Shown in pieces: positions 1-27,739 of a stretch of 27,739 nucleotides of DNA. Below the pieces are notes generated by a model, which worked only from the letters and a program-made list of their open reading frames with translations, ran no database searches and was not told where the DNA came from. Each line of letters starts with the position of its first letter. Position 1 is the stretch's first letter. Both the position numbers and the translations under genes were made by a program. Location: the IMG/VR virus record IMGVR_UViG_2695420411_000008; one strand, 5' to 3'. This DNA comes from a virus. Taxonomy: Duplodnaviria > Heunggongvirae > Uroviricota > Caudoviricetes.

Positions 1-759
1 ATGAGCCAAATTTTACTGCAACCTGCTAACGCGATGATTACGCTGGAAAACGTCAATAAATGGTATGGACAATTCCATGTTTTGAAAAATATAAATTTAA
101 CCGTGCAACCGGGAGAACGGATCGTTCTGTGTGGCCCTTCAGGTTCCGGTAAATCGACAACCATTCGTTGTATTAATCATCTGGAAGAACATCAACAGGG
201 ACGGATCGTGGTAGATGGCATCGAACTTAATGAAGATATCCGCAATATTGAGCGCGTCAGGCAGGAAGTGGGAATGGTCTTTCAGCATTTCAATCTCTTC
301 CCTCATCTGACCGTTCTACAGAACTGTACCCTGGCACCGATTTGGGTACGCAAGATGCCTAAGAAAGAGGCTGAAGATCTGGCGGTGCATTACCTCGAGC
401 GGGTGAGAATTGCCGAACATGCGCATAAGTTTCCCGGACAGATTTCAGGTGGTCAGCAGCAACGCGTTGCCATTGCGCGTTCGCTGTGTATGAAGCCGAA
501 AATTATGTTGTTTGATGAGCCAACGTCGGCGCTCGATCCTGAGATGGTGAAAGAGGTGCTGGATACGATGATTGGGCTGGCGCAGTCGGGTATGACAATG
601 CTGTGTGTAACACATGAGATGGGGTTTGCACGAACCGTCGCTGACCGGGTGATTTTTATGGATCGTGGGGAGATAGTGGAACAAGCTGCACCTGATGAGT
701 TTTTTGCGCATCCTAAATCAGAGCGTACGAGGGCATTTTTATCGCAGGTAATCCATTAA
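1..759 (+). CDS. yhdZ: Polar amino-acid ABC transporter ATP-binding protein (YhdZ-like); chromosomal flank
   Basis: Walker [13 protein letters not shown] signature SGGQQQRV, Walker [11 protein letters not shown] in the 252-aa ORF; near-identity to E. coli YhdZ is from memory, not a search. Confidence 0.85.
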
Positions 760-785
760 TTGAATGTTAGTTCGAAAAGCAAAAA

Positions 786-813
786 GGCCATCCTTTCGGA
801 TGGCCTTTCGCTT
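786..813 (+). terminator. Rho-independent terminator after the ABC transporter gene
   Basis: GGCCATCC / TTTC loop / GGATGGCC perfect 8-bp stem followed by a T-rich tract. Confidence 0.7.
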
Positions 814-854
814 GATTTGATGTCTGGCAGTTTATGGCGGGCGTCCTGCCCGCC

Positions 855-864
855 NNNNNNNNNN
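855..864. other. Assembly gap (10 N)
   Basis: Run of 10 n characters; immediately preceded by a GC hairpin (GGCGGGC-GTCCT-GCCCGCC, 836-854). Confidence 0.95.
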
Positions 865-1140
865 AAAGCTGCGCGCGGTCGCGAATGTCAGGTTCGGATC
901 CCCGGCGTGTGCAACGGCAACCCAGACACAAGCGTGCTGGCGCATATTCGCCTGGCCGGGCTGTGCGGTACCGGAATTAAGCCGCCTGATCTGATTGCCA
1001 CCATTGCATGCAGCAGCTGTCACGACGAAATCGACCGCCGCACTCGCCTGGTCGACGCGGATTATGCAAAGGAGTGCGCGCTGGAGGGCATGGCCCGCAC
1101 GCAGGTTATCTGGCTGAAAGAGGGGAAGGTGAAAGCGTGA
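865..1140 (+). CDS. Lambdoid nin-region protein, DUF1364-like (Zn-binding, putative nuclease); 5' end lost in the gap
   Basis: Reading frame open straight from the N run; motif [24 protein letters not shown] and CSSCHDEID cysteine cluster; sits directly upstream of rusA as in lambdoid nin regions. Confidence 0.55.
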
Positions 1141-1499
1141 GCGAGTACAAAATCACATTGCCGTGGCCACCGAGTAATAACCGCTATTACCGACACAATC
1201 GCGGGCGTACGCACATCAGCACGGAAGGGCAGGCTTACCGCGACCGCGTGGCCCAAATCATCAAAGACCAGCTGCTGGATATCGGCATCTCCGGCCCGGT
1301 GAAGATTCGCATCGAGTGCCATATGCCTGCCCGCCGCCGCCGTGACCTGGACAACCTGCAGAAGGCCGCGTTCGACGCGCTTACTAAGGCCGGATTCTGG
1401 CAGGACGATCAGCTGGTGGACGACTACCGCGTTATACGGATGCCCGTCGTCAGGGGCGGCAGGCTGGAGCTGACCATCACCGAACTGGGGGACTTATGA
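1137..1499 (+). CDS. rusA: Holliday junction resolvase RusA
   Basis: GTG start overlapping upstream stop; 120 aa with [21 protein letters not shown] and [23 protein letters not shown] motifs typical of RusA. Confidence 0.9.
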
Positions 1500-1636
1500 C
1501 ATCAGAACTGATTGAGGTAATCCGCATGCGCTGGACACGCCTCCGCATTTATCGCCGCCCGGGTTCGGTGCTGGTGGACTACCGCATTCTTCGCAATTTT
1601 ATTCGCATTAACCAGTTGGCAGGAGCTGCTGCATGA
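1496..1636 (+). CDS. Small basic hypothetical protein (46 aa), translationally coupled between rusA and Q
   Basis: ATG overlaps rusA stop (ATGA) and its stop overlaps the Q start (ATGA); Arg-rich; below the ORF-track length cutoff. Confidence 0.3.
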
Positions 1637-2463
1637 ACCTCGAAAACACCGTGAAATACCACTTCGCCAAATCGACGCTGATTAGCGACTCTCCGCGCGC
1701 TACGGCCTCCGACTCGCTGACCGGAACGGACATCATGGCAGCCATGGGCATGACCCAGGAACGCGCCGCCATGGGCTACAGTGCCTTTCTCGGAAAGATG
1801 GGCATCAGCAACAACGATCGGGAGAGAGCGATCGAGCTGCTGGCCCAGTATGCGCTGACAAAATGCGATAGCGTGGCTGCCCTGCGCAAACTGGACGCTG
1901 GGGTTAAACCGCTGGTGATGCGCCAGCTTGCTACCTTCGCTTTTGAGGACTATTCCCGCAGCGCCGCCAGCGTCAAGAGGTGCGAATGTTGCGCAGGGCA
2001 GGGGTTCATTGAGGCTGACGTTTTTAGTATGAAAACCAGCATCTCTGGCTGCGCAAAAGACATCATTCAAAAATCAAAAAAATGGGGGCTGAAGGTTATC
2101 CCTTCGCAGCATCAGAATCGGCGTGAGGTGAAAGAGGTGGCCCGGGTGCTGTGCTCGGCCTGCAAAGGGAAGAAGGTCGTCAGCTGCGCATGTAATGACT
2201 GCCAGGGGCGCGGAAAAGCTGTCAGCAAGACGCTGACAGAAAAGCAGGGCGCGCCGGTGATGGCCGACTGCAAGCGCTGCGGCGGGCGCGGGTATGAGCG
2301 GATCCCCTCGACTGAGGCATATGCGGCTGTTTGCCTTATTACCGACGCCATTACTCTGGACACCTGGAAAAAGTCAGTGAAGCCGTTTTACGACCGGCTG
2401 ATCACCAAATTCGACATGGAAGAAGCGTGGGCCGAATCGCAACTGCGAGCAATAACTCGATAA
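1633..2463 (+). CDS. Q: Late-gene antitermination protein Q
   Basis: AGGAG RBS 7 nt upstream; position after rusA and before the lysis cassette; Cys-rich zinc-finger-like segment (CSACKGKKVVSCACNDCQGRGK, CKRCGGRG). Confidence 0.7.
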   Translation: MNLENTVKYHFAKSTLISDSPRATASDSLTGTDIMAAMGMTQERAAMGYSAFLGKMGISNNDRERAIELLAQYALTKCDSVAALRKLDAGVKPLVMRQLATFAFEDYSRSAASVKRCECCAGQGFIEADVFSMKTSISGCAKDIIQKSKKWGLKVIPSQHQNRREVKEVARVLCSACKGKKVVSCACNDCQGRGKAVSKTLTEKQGAPVMADCKRCGGRGYERIPSTEAYAAVCLITDAITLDTWKKSVKPFYDRLITKFDMEEAWAESQLRAITR

Positions 2464-2469
2464 AGCACC

Positions 2470-2545
2470 AATTAATCGCTGTCGATTTTATCGTGAGCTA
2501 TTTACTTTTCCCGAATCTGTGTTAATTTCTCTCCAACGATGGGTT
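2470..2545 (+). promoter_or_regulatory. Probable Q-dependent late promoter (PR'-like) and Q-utilisation region
   Basis: AT-rich segment directly downstream of Q and upstream of a strong hairpin; exact -35/-10 not assignable by eye. Confidence 0.35.
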
Positions 2546-2558
2546 ACTGCCTTCGTTT

Positions 2559-2588
2559 AAAGCCCTGCGGTTAACCCCGCGGGGCTTT
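2559..2588 (+). terminator. tR'-like hairpin terminator in the late leader
   Basis: 12-bp stem AAAGCCCTGCGG / CCGCGGGGCTTT (one G-U pair), 6-nt loop, followed by GCCGTTTCTGG. Confidence 0.5.
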
Positions 2589-2843
2589 GCCGTTTCTGGA
2601 GGGTATGAAAATGTAGAGTAGAACGGACACACCGTAGCCGAAAGGCAATGCAGCAGTCATGATGCTGCCCCGAGTCGCCATTGAGCGAGCCTGTGTAGTG
2701 ACGGGTCAGGGTTCATAGATTAAAAATAGCTCCGGTAAAGCAGCGCGAAAGCCAGACGCGCACCGGTGATAAGCGGCGATGATGCGACAGCAGCTCAAGG
2801 GCATGAGCGTGGCCACTCCGGGAAGTGGCAAAGAATTTATAGA

Positions 2844-2871
2844 GGCTCGCATACGCGGGCCTTTTCTTTTT
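2844..2871 (+). terminator. Second intrinsic terminator-like hairpin in the late leader
   Basis: GGCTCGC / ATAC / GCGGGCC (one mismatch) followed by TTTTCTTTTT. Confidence 0.4.
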
Positions 2872-2971
2872 CAGGCTCCGGGAAACCTCCTCAACAAGCC
2901 TTGTTGTTAATGCAGCCCGAGAGCCTGATCCCCATTACACATAGCACCCCGAAATAATCGGAGGTGAGAGC

Positions 2972-3187
2972 ATGTTACGCATGGAAAAACTAACCACTGG
3001 CATCGCCTATGGTGCATCAGCGACTAACGCTGGTTACTGGAGCCTGCAGTTGCTTGACCAGGTGTCACCATCGCAGTGGGCAGCCATTGGTGTGCTTGGC
3101 AGCCTGGTGTTCGGGCTGCTGACGTATCTGACAAACCTGTATTTCAAAATCAAAGAGGACCGGCGCAAAGCCGCCAGGGGGGAATAG
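2972..3187 (+). CDS. Holin, phage 21 S-like pinholin, with dual-start motif
   Basis: GGAGG RBS; N-terminus M-L-R-M-E-K (two in-frame Mets 3 codons apart flanking Arg); two TM segments; close resemblance to S21. Confidence 0.9.
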
Positions 3188-3723
3188 TGGCTGACAGATC
3201 AAAGCTTAGCGCTGCGGTATTAGGTCTTATCCTCGCCGGTGCGTCAGCGCCCGTTATTCTCGATCAGTTCCTGAATGAGAAGGAAGGCAACAGCCTGATT
3301 GCTTATCAGGACGGTGGCGGCGTCTGGACTATTTGCCGCGGCGCCACGCTGGTAGATGGTAAACCAGTTCGCCAGGGCATGAAGCTGACGCAGGCCAAAT
3401 GTGACCAGGTGAATGCCGTTGAGCGAAATAAAGCGCTGGCCTGGGTTGAACGCAATATCAGGGTGCCGCTGACCGAACCGCAAAAGGCCGGAATAGCTTC
3501 TTTCTGCCCGTATAACATCGGGCCCGGTAAGTGCTTCCCCTCGACGTTCTATAAGCGCATCAATGCCGGTGACCGTAAAGGGGCATGCGAAGCGATCCGC
3601 TGGTGGATAAAAGATGGCGGCCGGGATTGCCGGCTAACCAAGGGGCAGAAGAACGGATGCTTCGGTCAGGTGGAACGCCGCGACCAAGAAAGCGCGTTGG
3701 CATGCTGGGGGCTCGATAAATGA
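3187..3723 (+). CDS. SAR endolysin (T4-lysozyme-type muramidase with N-terminal signal-anchor-release domain)
   Basis: GTG start overlaps holin stop; Gly/Ala-rich weakly hydrophobic N-terminus; catalytic spacing E-x8-D-x5-T in EGNSLIAYQDGGGVWT. Confidence 0.85.
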   Translation: MADRSKLSAAVLGLILAGASAPVILDQFLNEKEGNSLIAYQDGGGVWTICRGATLVDGKPVRQGMKLTQAKCDQVNAVERNKALAWVERNIRVPLTEPQKAGIASFCPYNIGPGKCFPSTFYKRINAGDRKGACEAIRWWIKDGGRDCRLTKGQKNGCFGQVERRDQESALACWGLDK

Positions 3724-4112
3724 AAGCTCGTCACATCATTGCGATTGCCATATTCCTCCTTTGCCTGTTCGGCGGGGCGTGCTGGTCGGCATGGTATTAC
3801 AGCGACAAAGCCAGTAGCGAAAAGGAGCGGGCCGATAGCGCAGAACAGCAGGCTGAGACCGCGAATGCTGTCACCGCGAACGTGATTCGGGCCGTGAGTA
3901 TCATCAACGCCATTTCAGAGGCGAACCAGAATGCAAAGAACAAGATCGCACTGGAGTCACAGAGAGCCCAGGCAGATATCAAAGTGGCTGTTGCGGATGA
4001 TGATTGCGCTCGTCGGCCTGTGCCTGCTGCAGCTGCTAACCGGCTGCGGGAATACGCGGACAGTTTACGTGCAGGCGCCGGTGGTGCCCCTGCCGGCGAA
4101 CCTGACAGCTGA
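3720..4112 (+). CDS. Spanin inner-membrane subunit (Rz-like)
   Basis: ATGA overlap with endolysin stop; N-terminal TM helix then a coiled-coil-like periplasmic domain. Confidence 0.7.
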   Translation: MKARHIIAIAIFLLCLFGGACWSAWYYSDKASSEKERADSAEQQAETANAVTANVIRAVSIINAISEANQNAKNKIALESQRAQADIKVAVADDDCARRPVPAAAANRLREYADSLRAGAGGAPAGEPDS

Positions 4113-4260
4113 AACACCACAGCCTGCCATTCCCGAGCCGCTGACCTACGGGGACAGTCTGGATCTGAATGTCAGTCTGCTATCGGCGCTGGGGCAATGC
4201 AATCGGGATAAGGCTGATATATGGAAGGTTGAACTTTCACGCACATCTCATTTTAAATAA
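3997..4260 (+). CDS. Spanin outer-membrane lipoprotein subunit (Rz1-like), overlapping Rz in another frame
   Basis: Signal peptide with lipobox LLTGC, Pro-rich mature part; starts inside Rz and extends past its stop. Confidence 0.6.
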   Translation: MMIALVGLCLLQLLTGCGNTRTVYVQAPVVPLPANLTAETPQPAIPEPLTYGDSLDLNVSLLSALGQCNRDKADIWKVELSRTSHFK

Positions 4261-4266
4261 CAATAT

Positions 4267-4294
4267 TTGCGAAAGTTACCCGTTTCGCTATCAT
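4267..4294 (+). promoter_or_regulatory. Candidate sigma70 promoter
   Basis: TTGCGA - 16 nt - TATCAT immediately after Rz1. Confidence 0.3.
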
Positions 4295-4648
4295 AAAAAA
4301 TGTTAACCCACGGAAAGTTCAAGGAGGTCTTTTTGACCCAGTTTTTGGACTTCCCCTTAAGCAACCGTTGATCGTGACGTCAGGGTTCCTGAGCCAGGGG
4401 TAACAGAAATCGAGAGGATAGTGCGAAGGGAGAATTCCGAGATGGATGACCATCTTGAGATTTTTACCACCCGCGTCTGGGACGTTGGAGTCTCCCGCCT
4501 TTCAGGTCACGCTGTTGGGTCAATTCATGAAAAGCCAAGGGGCTCAGGTGACGCTGCTTGGTTTGGCCCCGAAATGTCCGTCGCGTCATTAGGGATAACT
4601 GAACCTTGTAGTAATTCGCATTAGCTTGGCCTTCCTTTCACCTACAAA

Positions 4649-4668
4649 CCGCCTACGGGCGGTTTTTT
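4649..4668 (+). terminator. Rho-independent terminator (possibly bidirectional)
   Basis: CCGCC-TACG-GGCGG hairpin followed by TTTTTT; reverse strand has hairpin then TTTGT. Confidence 0.6.
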
Positions 4669-4759
4669 AGTGTCAACGCTATGGACAAACTCATCTTTAT
4701 GGCTACATCCCCCGGAGGGGATGCGTAAAAGGCTTAAGAAAAATGATTTTGAAAAATGC

Positions 4760-5020
4760 TTATTGTGCTCTGCCTAGTAGAGCAGCGACTCTCTCGTTTA
4801 ATTTTTCTAGGTATCCATCTTTAGCGGGAATGTCGAATTCGATGGGGTCGGCCTTAGAAACCCCTTCTAAATAAACATCTCCGAGGTGAGTTTCTTTCCC
4901 CACAACTCCGTTTAAAGCCGTTGATAATACAGCAATAGCAACACGAGAAGCGTGGCTGTGTAACTGTAACTCTTCAACCAAATCCTCAAGATGGGCAATT
5001 CTTTTTTCTACATCTGACAT
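4760..5020 (-). CDS. Hypothetical 86-aa protein, antisense to the late operon
   Basis: Clean ORF on minus strand in a locally AT-rich segment between lysis and terminase genes; charged helical-looking sequence; no family recognised. Confidence 0.5.
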   Translation of the reverse strand: MSDVEKRIAHLEDLVEELQLHSHASRVAIAVLSTALNGVVGKETHLGDVYLEGVSKADPIEFDIPAKDGYLEKLNERVAALLGRAQ

Positions 5021-5156
5021 AGTCGTTCCTTTGCATCAAAGTTCTTAGGGTTGAAACATGACACTTGTATAGAAGCAAAATAATTTTTGCCGCTAATACT
5101 TCGTCATTTTCAATGGTTACTATCGCCTCGTTTATTGGAATATTCCAGAGAGTTTT

Positions 5157-5864
5157 ATGGCAAAACCGGACTGGGGAAGCCTCCAAAGACGGTTCCTCGC
5201 CGAGCATGCCAAAACAGGTATATCGCCGAAAGAATGGTGCGAAGCGCAGGGACTGAATTATACATCTGCGCGCAGGTACATCAAAAAGCCTGCTGCGCAA
5301 AAAACTGCGCAAAAGGATGTGCGCAAAACTGCGCAAAGCCAGATGCCGCATGTAGTAGTGGTTGAAGCCTCTACGCCAGTTGAGGGCGATACTGCGCAGG
5401 AAAACGCAGGCATCCTTAAACCACAGCATGAGCAGTTTGCGCAGAACATCGCGCGGGGCATGCCGCAGAAAGAGGCGGCGATATGCGCGGGCTATTCGCC
5501 TTCACGCGCTGATTCCCAGGCATCGATACTTTTCAAACGCCCGGATGTGCGCAGGCGCATCAGAGAGCTGCGTCAGGATGCCGCTCTGCTCGTATCATTC
5601 GACGCGAAAGACCTGGCTGAACTCTCCTACAAATCGGCGAAAGCCGCGCTGGACGCTGAGAAGTTTGGGCAGGTAGCCCCGAACATCAAAAACGCCGCGC
5701 AGCTCACCGGCATCGACATGAGCAACAAAACGGAAGTGAATGTCGATCTGGCTGGCCTGAGTTACGGAAAGGTCTGCATCGTCACGCCGTCGAACTGCCC
5801 GCCTGAAGCGTGGGCAGCGCACATGGATAAGCTGCGCGAGGGAAAGCAGACAGCCCAACAATAA
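5157..5864 (+). CDS. Terminase small subunit
   Basis: Directly upstream of terL; N-terminal HTH-like segment [25 protein letters not shown]. Confidence 0.75.
5294..5337 (+). repeat. Four spaced copies of TGCGCAAA inside terS
   Basis: TGCGCAAA at 5294, 5306, 5320 and 5330; encodes a repeated AQK(T/D) peptide. Confidence 0.6.
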
Positions 5865-5899
5865 TCGATGGTGTCCTGTACTCATTCAGTAGCGACTGG

Positions 5900-7105
5900 G
5901 TGCTCGGGACGCTGTACGACGCACCGATAGGCTCTGTCCGCTGGCGCTGGACGTATGGCGGTCGTGGTGGCGGCAAATCGGTAGAGATTGCCCGCGCGCT
6001 GGTATTGTTGGGCGCTATCGAGCCAATGATCATCCTGTGCGCTCGTGAGTTCCAGAACTCTATCAACGATTCGGTACTGGCACTGCTGGACGCTGAAATC
6101 CACTCGCTTGGCCTGGCGCACTTCTACAAGGTCAAGAACAACGAGATAGAGGGCAGCAACGGCACGCGGTTTACCTTCAAAGGTCTGCGCAACAACATCC
6201 AGAGCATTAAGTCGATGCACGGCATCAAAATATGCTGGGTAGAGGAAGCGCAAACCGTATCGCAGGATAGCTGGGACATCCTCGGTCCGACCGTTCGCGC
6301 CAATAAATCCGAAGTGTGGGTGTCGTTCAACCCGCGCGAAGCTACCGACCCGACCTACGCCATGATGGAGCGGCACCGCGCCGATCCCCCTGATGGCGGA
6401 GCGATTATTACCTGCGTCAACTACTGCGATAACGCATTCTTCCCTGACGTGCTCAGGCACGAGATGGAATACTGCAAGCGTATCGACTTCGAGGCTTACG
6501 AGCATATCTGGCTGGGGCTGCCGAAGGCGCTCAGTGAGGCCGTTATCTTCTCCGGCAAGTACCGGGTTGAGGCATTCTCTGACGACCTGTGGAAAGAAGC
6601 CGATCGCCTGTTTTATGGGGCTGACTTCGGTTTCGCCAACGACCCATCCACTCTGGTCCGTTGCTTCATTATCGGCACCCGATTGTACATCGAGTACGAA
6701 GCCTACGGCGTCGGCGTCGAGCTGGACGAAATGGCGCAGTTCTATGACTCCATCCCGGAATCCAGAAAATGGCCCATTCACGGCGACTGCAGCCGGCCGG
6801 AGACCATCAGTTATCTTTCGCGTCAGGGCTTCATCATCGACGGCGCTACCAAATGGCCGGGGAGCGTTGAGGACGGCATTACCTACCTGAAAGGGTTCGA
6901 AGAAATCATCATCCATGAGCGCTGTAAGCACATGGTCGATGAGGCGCGCCTTTACTCCTACAAAACCGACCGCATGACCGGCGAAGTGCTGCCGGTTGTC
7001 GTGGATAAGCATAACCACCTGTGGGATGCCGTGCGCTACTCGCTGGATGGATACATCACAAGCGTTGGCGATCTCGGTGTCTGGGCCGCCCTGGGCAAAC
7101 AATAA
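5900..7105 (+). CDS. Terminase large subunit
   Basis: Walker A GGRGGGKS near the N-terminus, C-terminal nuclease-like region; GTG start as in ORF track, true start uncertain. Confidence 0.9.
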
Positions 7106-17098: not shown

Positions 17099-19070
17099 TA
17101 CTATCCGTGATTACCTGGTCTCTCTGGGGTTCGATATCGACGGCGCGGGCCAGGCGAAGTTTGAAGCCACGCTCAAAGGTGTGGCCGCGAACGTCGTAAA
17201 ACTGGGGGCCATAGTTGAGTCGACGGGGCTGGCCATTGTGGGCTTCACCGCCTCGATCGCCAGCGGCCTTGATAAACTCTACTGGGCCGCGGAACGCACC
17301 GGGGCATCGGTCAACGGCATCAAGGCGCTTGGCTATGCTGCCTCACAAACCGGCTCCAGCGCCGAGGCTGCCCAGAACTCACTGGAGAGCCTGGCGCGCT
17401 TCATGCGCAGCAATCCCGGCGCCGAAGGCTTCCTGAACCGCCTGGGGGTGCAGACCCGGGACGCTTCCGGACAGATGCGCGACATGTCGGCTATCTTCAC
17501 CGGCGTCGGCCAGCGCCTCAGCAGCATGCCCTATTATCGAGCCAATCAGTTCGCGCAGATGCTGGGCATTGACGAAAACACGCTGATGGCAATGCGGCGA
17601 GGAATGTCCGGCTTCACGGCTGAATACCAGTCGATGATGCAGAAGACAGGCTTCGATGCTGACAGGGCCGCGCAGCAGTCCAACAAGTTCATGACCTCAA
17701 TGCGCAACTTCGTTTCGCTACTGGGGATCTTGCGCGATAAGGTTGGCTCGAATCTGGCCGGCGGCCTGAGCGGCACGCTGAACAATCTCAGCAAGCAGAT
17801 GCTGGAGAACTGGCCGAAGATAGAGGGCGTGGTCACGAAGATAGTGAAGGGGGTGCTCTTTGCTGCTGATGTCATTACCCAGATGGCGTGGCGCGTCTCG
17901 CAGGCGGTAGGCGGCCTGATTGAGTGGTTTAAAAAGCTGCCGCCGGATATACAGCAGCTAATCATGCTGGTGTCCGGGCTGGTTTCGGCGTGGCAGCTGC
18001 TTAACGCTGAGTTCCTCAAATCGCCGATAGGTATCGTAATCGCGCTAGGCTCGGCGCTGTTCGCGCTTTACGACGACTACAAAACCTGGAAAGAAGGCGG
18101 TCAAAGCCTGCTGCCCTGGGATAAATGGGAGCCAGAAATAGAGGCTGCCCTGAAATCGCTTGGCGAGCTGCGGGATTCTGTGAAGGCGATAGGGGTTGAA
18201 ATCGCAAAGCTGCTCAATATCAACCTCAAAAACTGGACCCTTAAAGGCGACATCGACAACCTCACTAAGCAGTTCGGTGAGTTTGGCAAGATGATTAAGA
18301 TGATTGGCGACCTGATAAACGCCATCAACGAGGGGCGTTGGAAAGATGCTTATGCGATCGGCAAGAACCTGCTGGCACAAGGGCAAGGCCAGGATGCTCT
18401 ACCTGCAGTATCTGACAGCGCTAACAATACTGCTGACTGGATAGAGGGCAAGACGGGGTTCGACCCGCGAAGCATCGGGAAAACAATAAACGGGTGGATT
18501 TTCGGCAAAGAAGAGGGCGGCTCAGACCAGCAGGAGAGCGGCCCGGGCAAGACGCTGGCCGACCGTAACAACAATCCTGGCAACCTGCGCCCCGTCGGCG
18601 GCACCGGTTTTACCTCTCATCAGACGCCGCTTGATGGTTGGATGGCAATGGCCAGGCAGATCCGTCTTTATTTCACCGGAAAAAGCGCGGCCGCCGGGTA
18701 TGAAAAACTCCAGTCAATATGGGACATCATCCACAAATACGCACCTGCCAGCGACAACAACGACCCCGAGGCCTATTCGAACTTCGTAGCCAATATGATG
18801 GGCGTGGGCGCTAAGGACACGCTGAACCTGAGCGACCCGCAGCAGTTCAGCAACCTTCTGCAGGCCATGTCCAGGAAGGAAGGTTACGGTCAGTGGAATT
18901 CCCCATTGGCCAGCGTTGCCGCTACGCAGGCAGCCGCGCAGATCAGCCAGGAAACGAACATCAATATTTACGGCGCGAGCGACCCGGCATCCACTGGCCG
19001 GGAGGTTGCCGATCGTCAATCCGGCGTTAATTCCCGTCTTACTCAGCAGCTACAACCGAGGGTCTACTGA
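17091..19070 (+). CDS. Tail tape measure protein
   Basis: 659-aa largely helical protein directly after the chaperone pair; distinct C-terminal globular region with NNNPGNLR motif. Confidence 0.85.
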   Translation: MADTIRDYLVSLGFDIDGAGQAKFEATLKGVAANVVKLGAIVESTGLAIVGFTASIASGLDKLYWAAERTGASVNGIKALGYAASQTGSSAEAAQNSLESLARFMRSNPGAEGFLNRLGVQTRDASGQMRDMSAIFTGVGQRLSSMPYYRANQFAQMLGIDENTLMAMRRGMSGFTAEYQSMMQKTGFDADRAAQQSNKFMTSMRNFVSLLGILRDKVGSNLAGGLSGTLNNLSKQMLENWPKIEGVVTKIVKGVLFAADVITQMAWRVSQAVGGLIEWFKKLPPDIQQLIMLVSGLVSAWQLLNAEFLKSPIGIVIALGSALFALYDDYKTWKEGGQSLLPWDKWEPEIEAALKSLGELRDSVKAIGVEIAKLLNINLKNWTLKGDIDNLTKQFGEFGKMIKMIGDLINAINEGRWKDAYAIGKNLLAQGQGQDALPAVSDSANNTADWIEGKTGFDPRSIGKTINGWIFGKEEGGSDQQESGPGKTLADRNNNPGNLRPVGGTGFTSHQTPLDGWMAMARQIRLYFTGKSAAAGYEKLQSIWDIIHKYAPASDNNDPEAYSNFVANMMGVGAKDTLNLSDPQQFSNLLQAMSRKEGYGQWNSPLASVAATQAAAQISQETNINIYGASDPASTGREVADRQSGVNSRLTQQLQPRVY

Positions 19071-21979: not shown

Positions 21980-22633
21980 ATGCCAGTATCAGCCCGCGCG
22001 CAGGACGGCAACGAATCGCAGACTCTTGAGGCGCACCGCCACGCCATTTTCGGCAGCCTGCGCGTGGCTTTGCCGGGGATCATCCAGTCCTTTGACCCTG
22101 AAACAGTGACATGCACCGTGCAGCCAGCCATCTACGGTCAGCGGCTCAGCGACGATGGCGCTCTGGTTTCTGAGGAGATACCGATTTTGCCAGACGTTCC
22201 AGTGGTGTTCCCCCGCGGCGGTGGCTGCACGTTAACCTTCCCGGTAAAGGCCGGTGACGAGTGCCTCCTGGTCTTCTCCGATCGCTGCATCGACTTCTGG
22301 TGGCAGAGCGGCGGGGGGCAGGAACCGGTTGACCCGCGCCAGCATGACCTGAGTGATGCGTTTGCCATTGTGGGTCCGCAGTCGCAGGCGCAGAAAATCA
22401 GCAGCATCAGTACCAGTGCGGTTGAACTGCGCAGTGACGACGGTGGAACAAAACTGAGCCTTAACCCTTCATCCGGAGCGATAACGGGAACCGCGCCGGG
22501 AGGCTTCAACCTTAACGGTCTGAAAATTCTGCCTGACGGCCGCCTGCAGCTGGTGGATGGCTCCATGGTTGATAAGCATACGCATGGCGGCGTGGAAGTC
22601 GGCGGCAGCAATACGAAACCACTGGGAGGGTAA
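21980..22633 (+). CDS. Baseplate spike / assembly protein V-like
   Basis: GGAGA RBS then ATG at 21980; the ORF-track start at 21932 would run through the terminator hairpin; position before the W- and J-like genes. Confidence 0.7.
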   Translation: MPVSARAQDGNESQTLEAHRHAIFGSLRVALPGIIQSFDPETVTCTVQPAIYGQRLSDDGALVSEEIPILPDVPVVFPRGGGCTLTFPVKAGDECLLVFSDRCIDFWWQSGGGQEPVDPRQHDLSDAFAIVGPQSQAQKISSISTSAVELRSDDGGTKLSLNPSSGAITGTAPGGFNLNGLKILPDGRLQLVDGSMVDKHTHGGVEVGGSNTKPLGG

Positions 22634-24866: not shown

Positions 24867-25645
24867 TGGCTGGAACTAATGATTTTAAAGCGTTTGCGAC
24901 AGATGCTAATGCAAATGTTACCTCGCAGGAGGAATGGGAGACGCTAACCGCACTGAAGAAAGGATTCTCCTCGGGTAAAGCATCCAGCGCACAGGTCAGT
25001 AAAGCGCTGCGCCAACCGTCGACGATGGCGGCTGTACTGGGGCAGTTTATCGCGAACGCCGAACTGGACGCGCTCGATGATGGTGACGTTGATGGACTGG
25101 TGGCAAAGCTGGCGACAGCGATTACCACAAACCTTGGTTTGGGAGAAGGCTCAGCATTACCCGTTGGCGTACCTGTTCCGTGGCCTTCAGCCACACCGCC
25201 GACAGGCTGGCTGAAATGCAACGGTGCCGCTTTTTCTGCTGAAGAATACCCGGAACTGGCAAAGGCTTACCCGACAAATAAATTGCCTGATTTACGTGGT
25301 GAGTTTATTCGTGGCTGGGATGACGGGCGTGGAGTGGATAGCGGTCGTACTTTATTAACGAATCAAGAGCATGCAGTAATTTCTCATAATCATGGAATAC
25401 CTACAAAAGTGGGGTCAGTTACTAATATCCCGTATGGAATAGAACAGGTTATATCTGATGAAACCATTTTTTCATCAGCAAAAACAGTTGGTGTGGATTA
25501 CTGGTCTAACAGTGAAAGAGTTTTTACTTATACCTCTGGTGGAAGAAATGGTGCTGAATCAGTGAGTTCACCTGATGCCTCCTCTTTAATTAAAGAAACC
25601 AGACCACGGAACCTAGCATTTGCGTATATCGTGAGGGCTGCATAA
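24866..25645 (+). CDS. Tail fibre protein: constant N-terminal part fused to the currently expressed variable C-terminal domain
   Basis: GGGGGAG RBS 9 nt before ATG 24866 (ATG overlaps upstream stop); C-terminal PWP...GWLKCNG...LPDLRGEFIRGWDDGRG collar-type receptor-binding domain; crossover site inside the gene. Confidence 0.75.
   Translation: MAGTNDFKAFATDANANVTSQEEWETLTALKKGFSSGKASSAQVSKALRQPSTMAAVLGQFIANAELDALDDGDVDGLVAKLATAITTNLGLGEGSALPVGVPVPWPSATPPTGWLKCNGAAFSAEEYPELAKAYPTNKLPDLRGEFIRGWDDGRGVDSGRTLLTNQEHAVISHNHGIPTKVGSVTNIPYGIEQVISDETIFSSAKTVGVDYWSNSERVFTYTSGGRNGAESVSSPDASSLIKETRPRNLAFAYIVRAA
25122..25147. promoter_or_regulatory. Left inversion crossover site (hix/gix-like, 26 bp)
   Basis: TTACCACAAACC-TT-GGTTTGGGAGAA; the 14-bp core TTGGTTTGGGAGAA (25134-25147) is a perfect inverted copy of 27106-27119. 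Confidence 0.6.
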
Positions 25646-26664: not shown

Positions 26665-27119
26665 TTACCGTCCAATGATTAATGCTGAGACGCTGGTATC
26701 TGAAGGAAAGGCTGCATTCAGTGGTTTGTCGACTTTGAACACAATCGTATTATTCCCCCTGACAGCGGCAAAAGAACAAACCGCAGTCGCGTATGAACCT
26801 GTAATATTACTGGATACACCACCATAAGCTGTTGTTGATACCAGAGGGATAACGCCCAGCACCTTATTAGGAAATACAAAGGGCAATGTGGCTGTGGCAA
26901 TATAAGACTTATTAGAACCTGTAATGGCATAAGCATTATCAGTCATTCCATTCATCGCCACCGGGCCGCTTATACTTACAGTAACCATCTGAATGATTAG
27001 CCCGTCAGGTTGACGAATCACAAAATTTCCATTGCCACCAGTAACCGTCCAGAAAGACATATCAGGGATTTGGTTTTCCCCGTTGCCCACATTCCGTTTT
27101 GCCGCTTCTCCCAAACCAA
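26665..27119 (-). CDS. Alternative tail-fibre C-terminal cassette (Sv'), currently lacking its own start
   Basis: Minus-strand frame open from the right crossover site; reads KVGLGEAAK across the core, matching NLGLGEGS at the left site, so inversion would fuse it in frame to the constant part. Confidence 0.65.
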
Positions 27120-27131
27120 CCTTTTTTATAA
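27106..27131. promoter_or_regulatory. Right inversion crossover site (hix/gix-like, 26 bp)
   Basis: TTCTCCCAAACC-AA-CCTTTTTTATAA; closely resembles hixL TTCTTGAAAACCAAGGTTTTTGATAA. Confidence 0.6.
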
Positions 27132-27190: not shown

Positions 27191-27739
27191 ATGATTTACG
27201 GTTATGCCCGAGTATCAACAAACCACCAGGACACTGAATTGCAACTAACGGCGCTCAAGTCAGCGGGTTGTGAGAAAATTTTTGAAGAGCATGCCAGCGG
27301 GAGGAAATCGAATCGGCCGGTTCTAAAACGGCTGATCGCCACTATGCAGCCGGGGGATGAACTGGTGGTCTGGAAGCTGGACAGGATAGGCCGCAACGTT
27401 CTGCATGCGCTGTTGATGTTCCAGCAGTTACAGGAAAAGGGTATCAACTTCCGCAGTATTACCGATGGCGTGGATCTCAAAACAGCCAGCGGCCGCTATA
27501 ACTTTCGTAACATCCTTTCCGCAGCACAATATGAATCTGATCTTAATAGCGAACGTACCTTAGCAGGGCTGGCCGTAGCCAGGGCAAAAGGGCGAGTTGG
27601 TGGTCGCAGGCCTAAGTTCACGGATGAGCAATGGCGGGAAATGGGGGAGCGGATGGCAACCGGTGAATCACGACAAAGCGTATCAAAAACGTATGGAGTA
27701 GGGCTCTCAACTCTGTATAAAAAGTTTCCAGCTAGCTGA
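27191..27739 (+). CDS. Serine recombinase, DNA invertase (Hin/Gin/Cin/Pin family)
   Basis: AGGAGA RBS; N-terminal YARVSTNHQD with catalytic Ser, VVWKLDRIGR motif, C-terminal HTH GVGLSTLYKKFPAS; 182 aa, stop at the window end. Confidence 0.9.
   Translation: MIYGYARVSTNHQDTELQLTALKSAGCEKIFEEHASGRKSNRPVLKRLIATMQPGDELVVWKLDRIGRNVLHALLMFQQLQEKGINFRSITDGVDLKTASGRYNFRNILSAAQYESDLNSERTLAGLAVARAKGRVGGRRPKFTDEQWREMGERMATGESRQSVSKTYGVGLSTLYKKFPAS

Follow-up and report, generated by a model that had tools for sequence, protein, structure and literature searches.

The closest described counterparts of the DNA considered here are the gaps that repeat-induced contig breaks leave at rRNA operons, the region distal to the rrnB operon of Escherichia coli K-12, and the prophages found between kch and yciI in the genomes NCTC11023, ES7 and COL60J. 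The stretch we analyzed (27,739 bases, hereafter the window) resembles an rRNA-operon gap in its left end, in its run of N and in its origin from a draft made with 100-bp paired reads. It departs from the usual case in that the contig past the N run is a prophage fragment from 2.1 Mb away and not yrdA/aroE, and since this contig is not the other side of rrnD the join points to mis-ordering and not merely to an unfilled gap. We conclude that the adjacency of yhdZ and ybcO in the window is very probably a scaffolding artefact of the short-read draft of strain RU1 MA12. On this reading the left contig would stop in the rrnD-distal part, where the sequence equals that of other rrn operons and could not be resolved by 100-bp reads, and an unrelated contig beginning at codon 6 of the prophage gene ybcO would have been placed beside it with a 10-N placeholder between the two. 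In the real chromosome yhdZ would be followed by rrnD, and the prophage would lie about 2.1 Mb off in the 3' end of yciI, the integrase being next to kch and ybcO being preceded by a full early region.

The window is identical to JRRU01000154.1 (GCA_001413535.1) over the 7,499 bases compared, the 10 N included; that record is a short-read whole-genome shotgun scaffold of 2,851,180 bases. GCA_001413535.1 is tabulated as E. coli RU1 MA12 (PMC9638481). RU1 is a human stool isolate, and MA1–MA12 are mutation-accumulation clones obtained from it by 200 daily single-colony transfers and sequenced as Illumina HiSeq 100-bp paired reads (PMC4263409, which names no assembler for the deposited scaffolds). 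Because 100-bp reads cannot bridge an rRNA operon of about 5 kb, a scaffold of megabase size must rest on some ordering step.

The yhdZ gene, the terminator-like hairpin, the GC hairpin and the 10 N that the initial annotation had described are all present, at the following positions:

1–759, plus strand: yhdZ, amino-acid ABC transporter ATP-binding subunit, intact, an ordinary E. coli chromosomal gene
782–809, minus strand: terminal hairpin terminator of rrnD, 12-bp stem, homologous to the last hairpin downstream of rrfB
836–854, no strand: GC hairpin GGCGGGC-GTCCT-GCCCGCC, perfect 7-bp stem, at the left contig end
855–864, no strand: scaffold gap of 10 N, joining two contigs judged not to be neighbours in the genome

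The left flank (bases 1–854) is 100% identical to many complete E. coli chromosomes and is made up of E. coli yhdZ and the distal end of rrnD. In both ATCC 8739 and K-12, rrnD is transcribed towards yhdZ, so that the two are convergent, and rrfF begins 230 nt past the yhdZ stop, with thrV, rrfD, the 23S gene, two tRNA genes and the 16S gene following in that order. The earlier suggestion that yhdZ stands next to an rRNA operon is therefore borne out. Window positions 776–854 align with the K-12 region downstream of the rrnB 5S gene (rrfB), a stretch that we take to be the T1–T2 terminator region, its last hairpin presumably being terminator T2. The window shares with the K-12 rrnB distal region both this final hairpin and the GGCGGGC...GCCCGCC hairpin, and is distinguished from it by a few substitutions in and around the terminator loop, which mark it as rrnD-distal, and by its convergent orientation relative to yhdZ. 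The GC hairpin has the same sequence in the rrnD-distal region of ATCC 8739 and the rrnB-distal region of K-12 and lies in a conserved spacer downstream of the 5S gene that is common to rrnD and rrnB. Given this alignment, what had been read as a yhdZ terminator forms, together with the GC hairpin, the conserved tail of an rRNA operon. The hairpin at 782–809 exists as first reported, with the refinement that both hairpins belong to the distal end of rrnD on the opposite strand. The 782–809 hairpin has a terminator-like score on either strand, the T-run being better on the minus strand, and given the two-strand score it may also terminate yhdZ transcription.

The left contig ends where this shared sequence begins to defeat short reads. 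T823 is the final base that separates the rrnD copy from the K-12 rrnB copy, and the contig end at 854 lies 31 nt further on; such a 31-nt run into the repeat would fit a de Bruijn assembler with k near 31, though it is no more than suggestive. The 5S gene lies 135 nt past the contig end, and these next 135 nt, taken from closed genomes, are repeated within genomes, with a median of 2 places and a maximum of 9. The proposal that an rRNA operon caused the contig break thus agrees with what we find: the left contig ends in rrn-shared sequence, the sequence beyond it is multi-copy, and the rrn repeat accounts for the left break. An rrn-distal repeat leading into the approximately 5-kb rrnD, read with 100-bp reads, is present on the left flank, and no repeat was found on the right flank. 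No RNA genes were detected in the window by Rfam and tRNA scans. The G+C content differs across the gap, at 48% on its left and 55% on its right side.

The run at 855–864 is the only N run in the 27,739 bases, is exactly 10 N long, and separates the two flanks within a whole-genome shotgun scaffold record. Beyond it the features are as follows:

865–1140, plus strand: ybcO (DUF1364, Pfam PF07102), lambdoid, without its first 5 codons; a 91-codon frame with its stop at 1138–1140
1137–1499, plus strand: rusA, 100% identical to closed-genome copies; Pfam RusA
1496–1636, plus strand: ylcG, 100% identical to closed-genome copies; Pfam Phage_YlcG
1633–2463, plus strand: Q-type antiterminator, 100% identical to closed-genome copies; Pfam Antiterm
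2464–27739, plus strand: rest of the same prophage, comprising lysis, terminase, head, contractile tail and baseplate genes, an invertible tail-fibre segment and an invertase

The source record carries a precomputed PF07102 match on the 91-aa ybcO product, and the closed-genome counterpart is annotated as a DUF1364 domain-containing protein, with the same order ybcO-rusA-ylcG-Q. In closed genomes the protein has 96 aa and base 865 corresponds to codon 6; both there and in sister assemblies ATGGCGGATTTACGC, which encodes MADLR, stands directly before this base. The frame lacks these codons because the contig starts at base 865, and the initial annotation was right that the first phage gene is open from 865 and short of only a few N-terminal codons, namely five (MADLR) of the 96. 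It was equally right that integrase, repressor and replication genes are absent between yhdZ and ybcO. The rusA-ylcG-Q order corresponds to the late end of a phage nin region, so the contig starts in the middle of a phage genome.

We looked for a repeat that might explain the break on this side. Two queries, the 1 kb preceding base 865 (closed-genome sequence) and the first 146 nt of the phage contig, were run against the 5,426 complete E. coli genomes and were each single-copy wherever present, and in an alignment the 31-mer at the contig start was not shared by divergent ybcO alleles. A fixed repeat as the cause of the phage-side break is therefore not supported, and one in the RU1 background is also unlikely at 865, because sister lines from the same ancestor assemble through this point. 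The phage-side break is either stochastic or due to a structural change specific to the MA12 line, such as a new IS copy.

The phage part of the window is 99.9% identical over 24.3 kb to the prophages in NCTC11023, ES7 and COL60J, and its genes, from ybcO through the baseplate, are arranged in the same order. In those genomes a full-length ybcO is preceded by recE, a repressor-like HTH gene, a cro-like regulator, ydaT, replication gene O, dinI, a DUF1367 gene and a 68-aa ORF, and in full-length prophage copies the early genes ahead of ybcO span more than 12 kb. The copy in the window, unlike these, is truncated by the contig end at ybcO codon 6; it also carries a different tail-fibre tip cassette beyond the invertase crossover site at 25122–25148. 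Shortened versions of the prophage exist as well. The closed genome 2017.04.02CC has a copy of about 10 kb at the same site (locus extract L002, 17476–27000) that keeps the integrase beside kch, a recT fragment, the 68-aa ORF, ybcO through the terminase genes and a truncated portal-region gene; most early genes between the recT fragment and the 68-aa ORF are missing. In eleven other complete genomes the match is confined to the first 6.7 kb of the phage part (query 1–6692, 99.9%); these probably carry a remnant like that of 2017.04.02CC, the sole copy inspected. Partial cover is all that 12 of the 16 complete genomes with matches of at least 99% to the 1 kb upstream of ybcO display. The element appears to decay through internal deletions.

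The place where this prophage integrates emerged when the empty K-12 site was compared with two occupied ones, the junction beside kch in a lysogen and the junction beside yciI in RU1. The attachment core is about 19 bp long and reads TCAGAACACTTTCTTAAAT at the empty K-12 site and attL and TTAGAACGCTTTCTTAAAT at attR; its positions in our locus extracts are:

L014, 12096–12232: stretch with the att core
L002, approximately 17270–17290: att core
L024, approximately 3070–3088: att core

Within the intergenic regions alone the longest common substring was an 8-mer, and the core became evident once the yciI 3' end was included. The core comprises the last codons of yciI, and integration into the 3' end of that gene restores the gene end. 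The phage-borne version carries two substitutions, including TTA for the TCA stop-codon complement. In the RU1 lines the right end of the prophage is the invertase, followed by yciI and tonB, the same right-hand neighbours as in NCTC11023, ES7 and COL60J. The attR core begins 119 nt past the right end of the window, and neither att site lies within it. On the K-12 map 2.1 Mb separate yhdZ, at 3.42 Mb, from the empty kch/yciI site, at 1.31 Mb, and in finished genomes the two flanks of the N run continue into distant sequence, the left into rrnD and the right into early phage genes at kch/yciI.

None of the marks of an attachment junction was found at 786–1140. Neither an integrase nor a phage genome end stands beside the junction, where the phage sequence starts at ybcO codon 6; the core is absent from this interval, and its copies are at the yciI 3' end and beside kch; and the junction occurs in none of the independent genomes searched, the sister assemblies having other neighbours at this point. 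The warning of the initial annotation that the adjacency should not be read as an attachment site was well placed, the real site being the 3' end of yciI.

The junction itself was sought in three collections. With an 810-nt spanning query, whose halves were merged if within about 900 nt of each other, none of the 5,426 complete E. coli genomes had one place covering both halves. A junction pattern allowing 0–30 bases at the N position gave no matches in GTDB representative genomes (genome_contigs) and none in JGI metagenome contigs (metagenome_contigs). A closed genome with this exact junction had been named as the observation that would overturn the assembly-gap reading; no such genome was found among the 5,426, nor was the junction found in the two contig collections, and that reading has not been refuted.

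Sister assemblies of the RU1 series provide a direct comparison. The RusA protein of the window occurs in four distinct gene contexts, and 20 of the 24 contigs read share the intact one. RU1 MA10, LB9 and BHI3 match the phage part without a single mismatch over 3,185 to 6,635 bases, and all three are contiguous across base 865, with ...GTGAGCATGGCGGATTTACGC directly before it, the full ybcO start and early genes upstream. One sister scaffold that is contiguous at this point is JRSD01000246.1, at about 2,069,892–2,082,254. From these lines we infer that MA12 still has the early region on another contig. The earlier statement that the early region is absent stands for this scaffold position only and should read "not on this contig". 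A search with the DUF1367 protein among 90% cluster representatives gave a best match of 92% identity.

The series also contains other 10-N joins:

L009, 8914–8923: 10-N join in the RU1 series
L012, 4162–4171: 10-N join in the RU1 series
L017, 12847–12856: 10-N join in the RU1 series

In BHI3 a contig that ends in rrn-leader sequence beside purH is linked by 10 N to phage sequence starting 100 nt before dinI; in MA10 a gap joins the Rz region to an IS1 end beside ybhO, the contig retaining 63 nt of IS1; and in LB5 one joins tonB to a nor/hyp gene region. The two halves of the prophage lie 2.6 Mb apart within a single MA10 scaffold. Since these gaps join non-adjacent loci, the 10-N joins of the series do not record chromosome order. 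In two assemblies, MA12 and BHI3, an rrn-flanking contig is joined to the early side of the phage.

Other readings are less likely. The adjacency could be artificial and the contig start at 865 nonetheless mark a structural mutation specific to MA12 at ybcO, for example a new IS copy that broke the assembly, which we regard as rather unlikely. Mutation-accumulation lines gain IS insertions, and in MA10 an IS1 end borders a gap in this prophage; every complete genome that carries the site has it as a single copy, and the sister lines of the same ancestor assemble through 865, which makes a fixed RU1 repeat there unlikely. The contig, however, begins as pure phage with no IS-end bases, against the 63 nt of IS1 kept in MA10, and the sister assemblies break at scattered phage positions, as stochastic coverage breaks would. 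A genuine event at the ybcO start in MA12, that is, an IS insertion or rearrangement within the 200 days, in the extreme case with the late half of the prophage relocated beside rrnD, is doubtful to a similar degree.

Loss of the early region from MA12 by a deletion running from the integrase to ybcO, leaving a defective prophage, is highly improbable. Naturally shortened copies do occur, as in 2017.04.02CC and the 12 of 16 genomes with partial upstream cover, but the 2017.04.02CC endpoint lies about 224 nt upstream of base 865 and so is a different break. A simple deletion would moreover give a unique junction that assembles through, not a contig end, and the early region is present in sister lines of the same ancestor. 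We give still less credence, close to none, to the junction being real, with an MA12 rearrangement having fused the rrnD-distal region to mid-prophage and some 10 bases left unread. At face value only a short N run intervenes, and BHI3 gives a second case in the series of an rrn-flanking contig placed against the early side of the phage. Yet the two ends have no homology to drive recombination, the left end coincides with a repeat boundary, the junction is in none of the collections searched, and other 10-N joins are plainly non-colinear, including the one scaffold in which the prophage is split 2.6 Mb apart.

Scaffolding of unrelated contigs being the favoured explanation, the junction is without biological novelty and is uninformative about where the phage integrates. 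Taken at face value, the record would give a truncated prophage beside yhdZ/rrnD, without integrase, repressor or replication genes, from which a reader could wrongly deduce a defective element or a novel site of attachment. The prophage family itself looks complete and is integrated at the yciI 3' end. The same caution extends to the whole RU1 assembly series, as the other 10-N joins are also non-colinear.

The prophage has several features of its own. It combines a lambdoid nin/Q/lysis module with a contractile-tail structural module (865–27739), and no close full-length relative was found in 50,697 deposited phage genomes, the best match having 18% coverage and 78% identity. Near its right end a 27-nt inverted repeat (25122–25148 and 27105–27131) flanks opposed tail-fibre-tip and tail-fibre-assembly genes, and a resolvase-family invertase gene (27191–27739) adjoins the segment. 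Inverted repeats, opposed tail genes and an invertase together form what we take to be the layout of a Gin/Pin-type invertible host-range segment. Identity to the closed-genome prophages ends exactly at the left repeat (25148), and the assembly-protein cassette of the invertible segment is also found in P2-like prophages. Finally, window position 22317 is G, as opposed to T in three sister RU1 assemblies and two closed genomes, and the tail spike protein (gene 21980–22633) thereby has Gly in place of Val113. The substitution (GGGGTG to GGGGGG) lengthens a G run and may be either a true MA12 mutation or a base-calling or assembly error.
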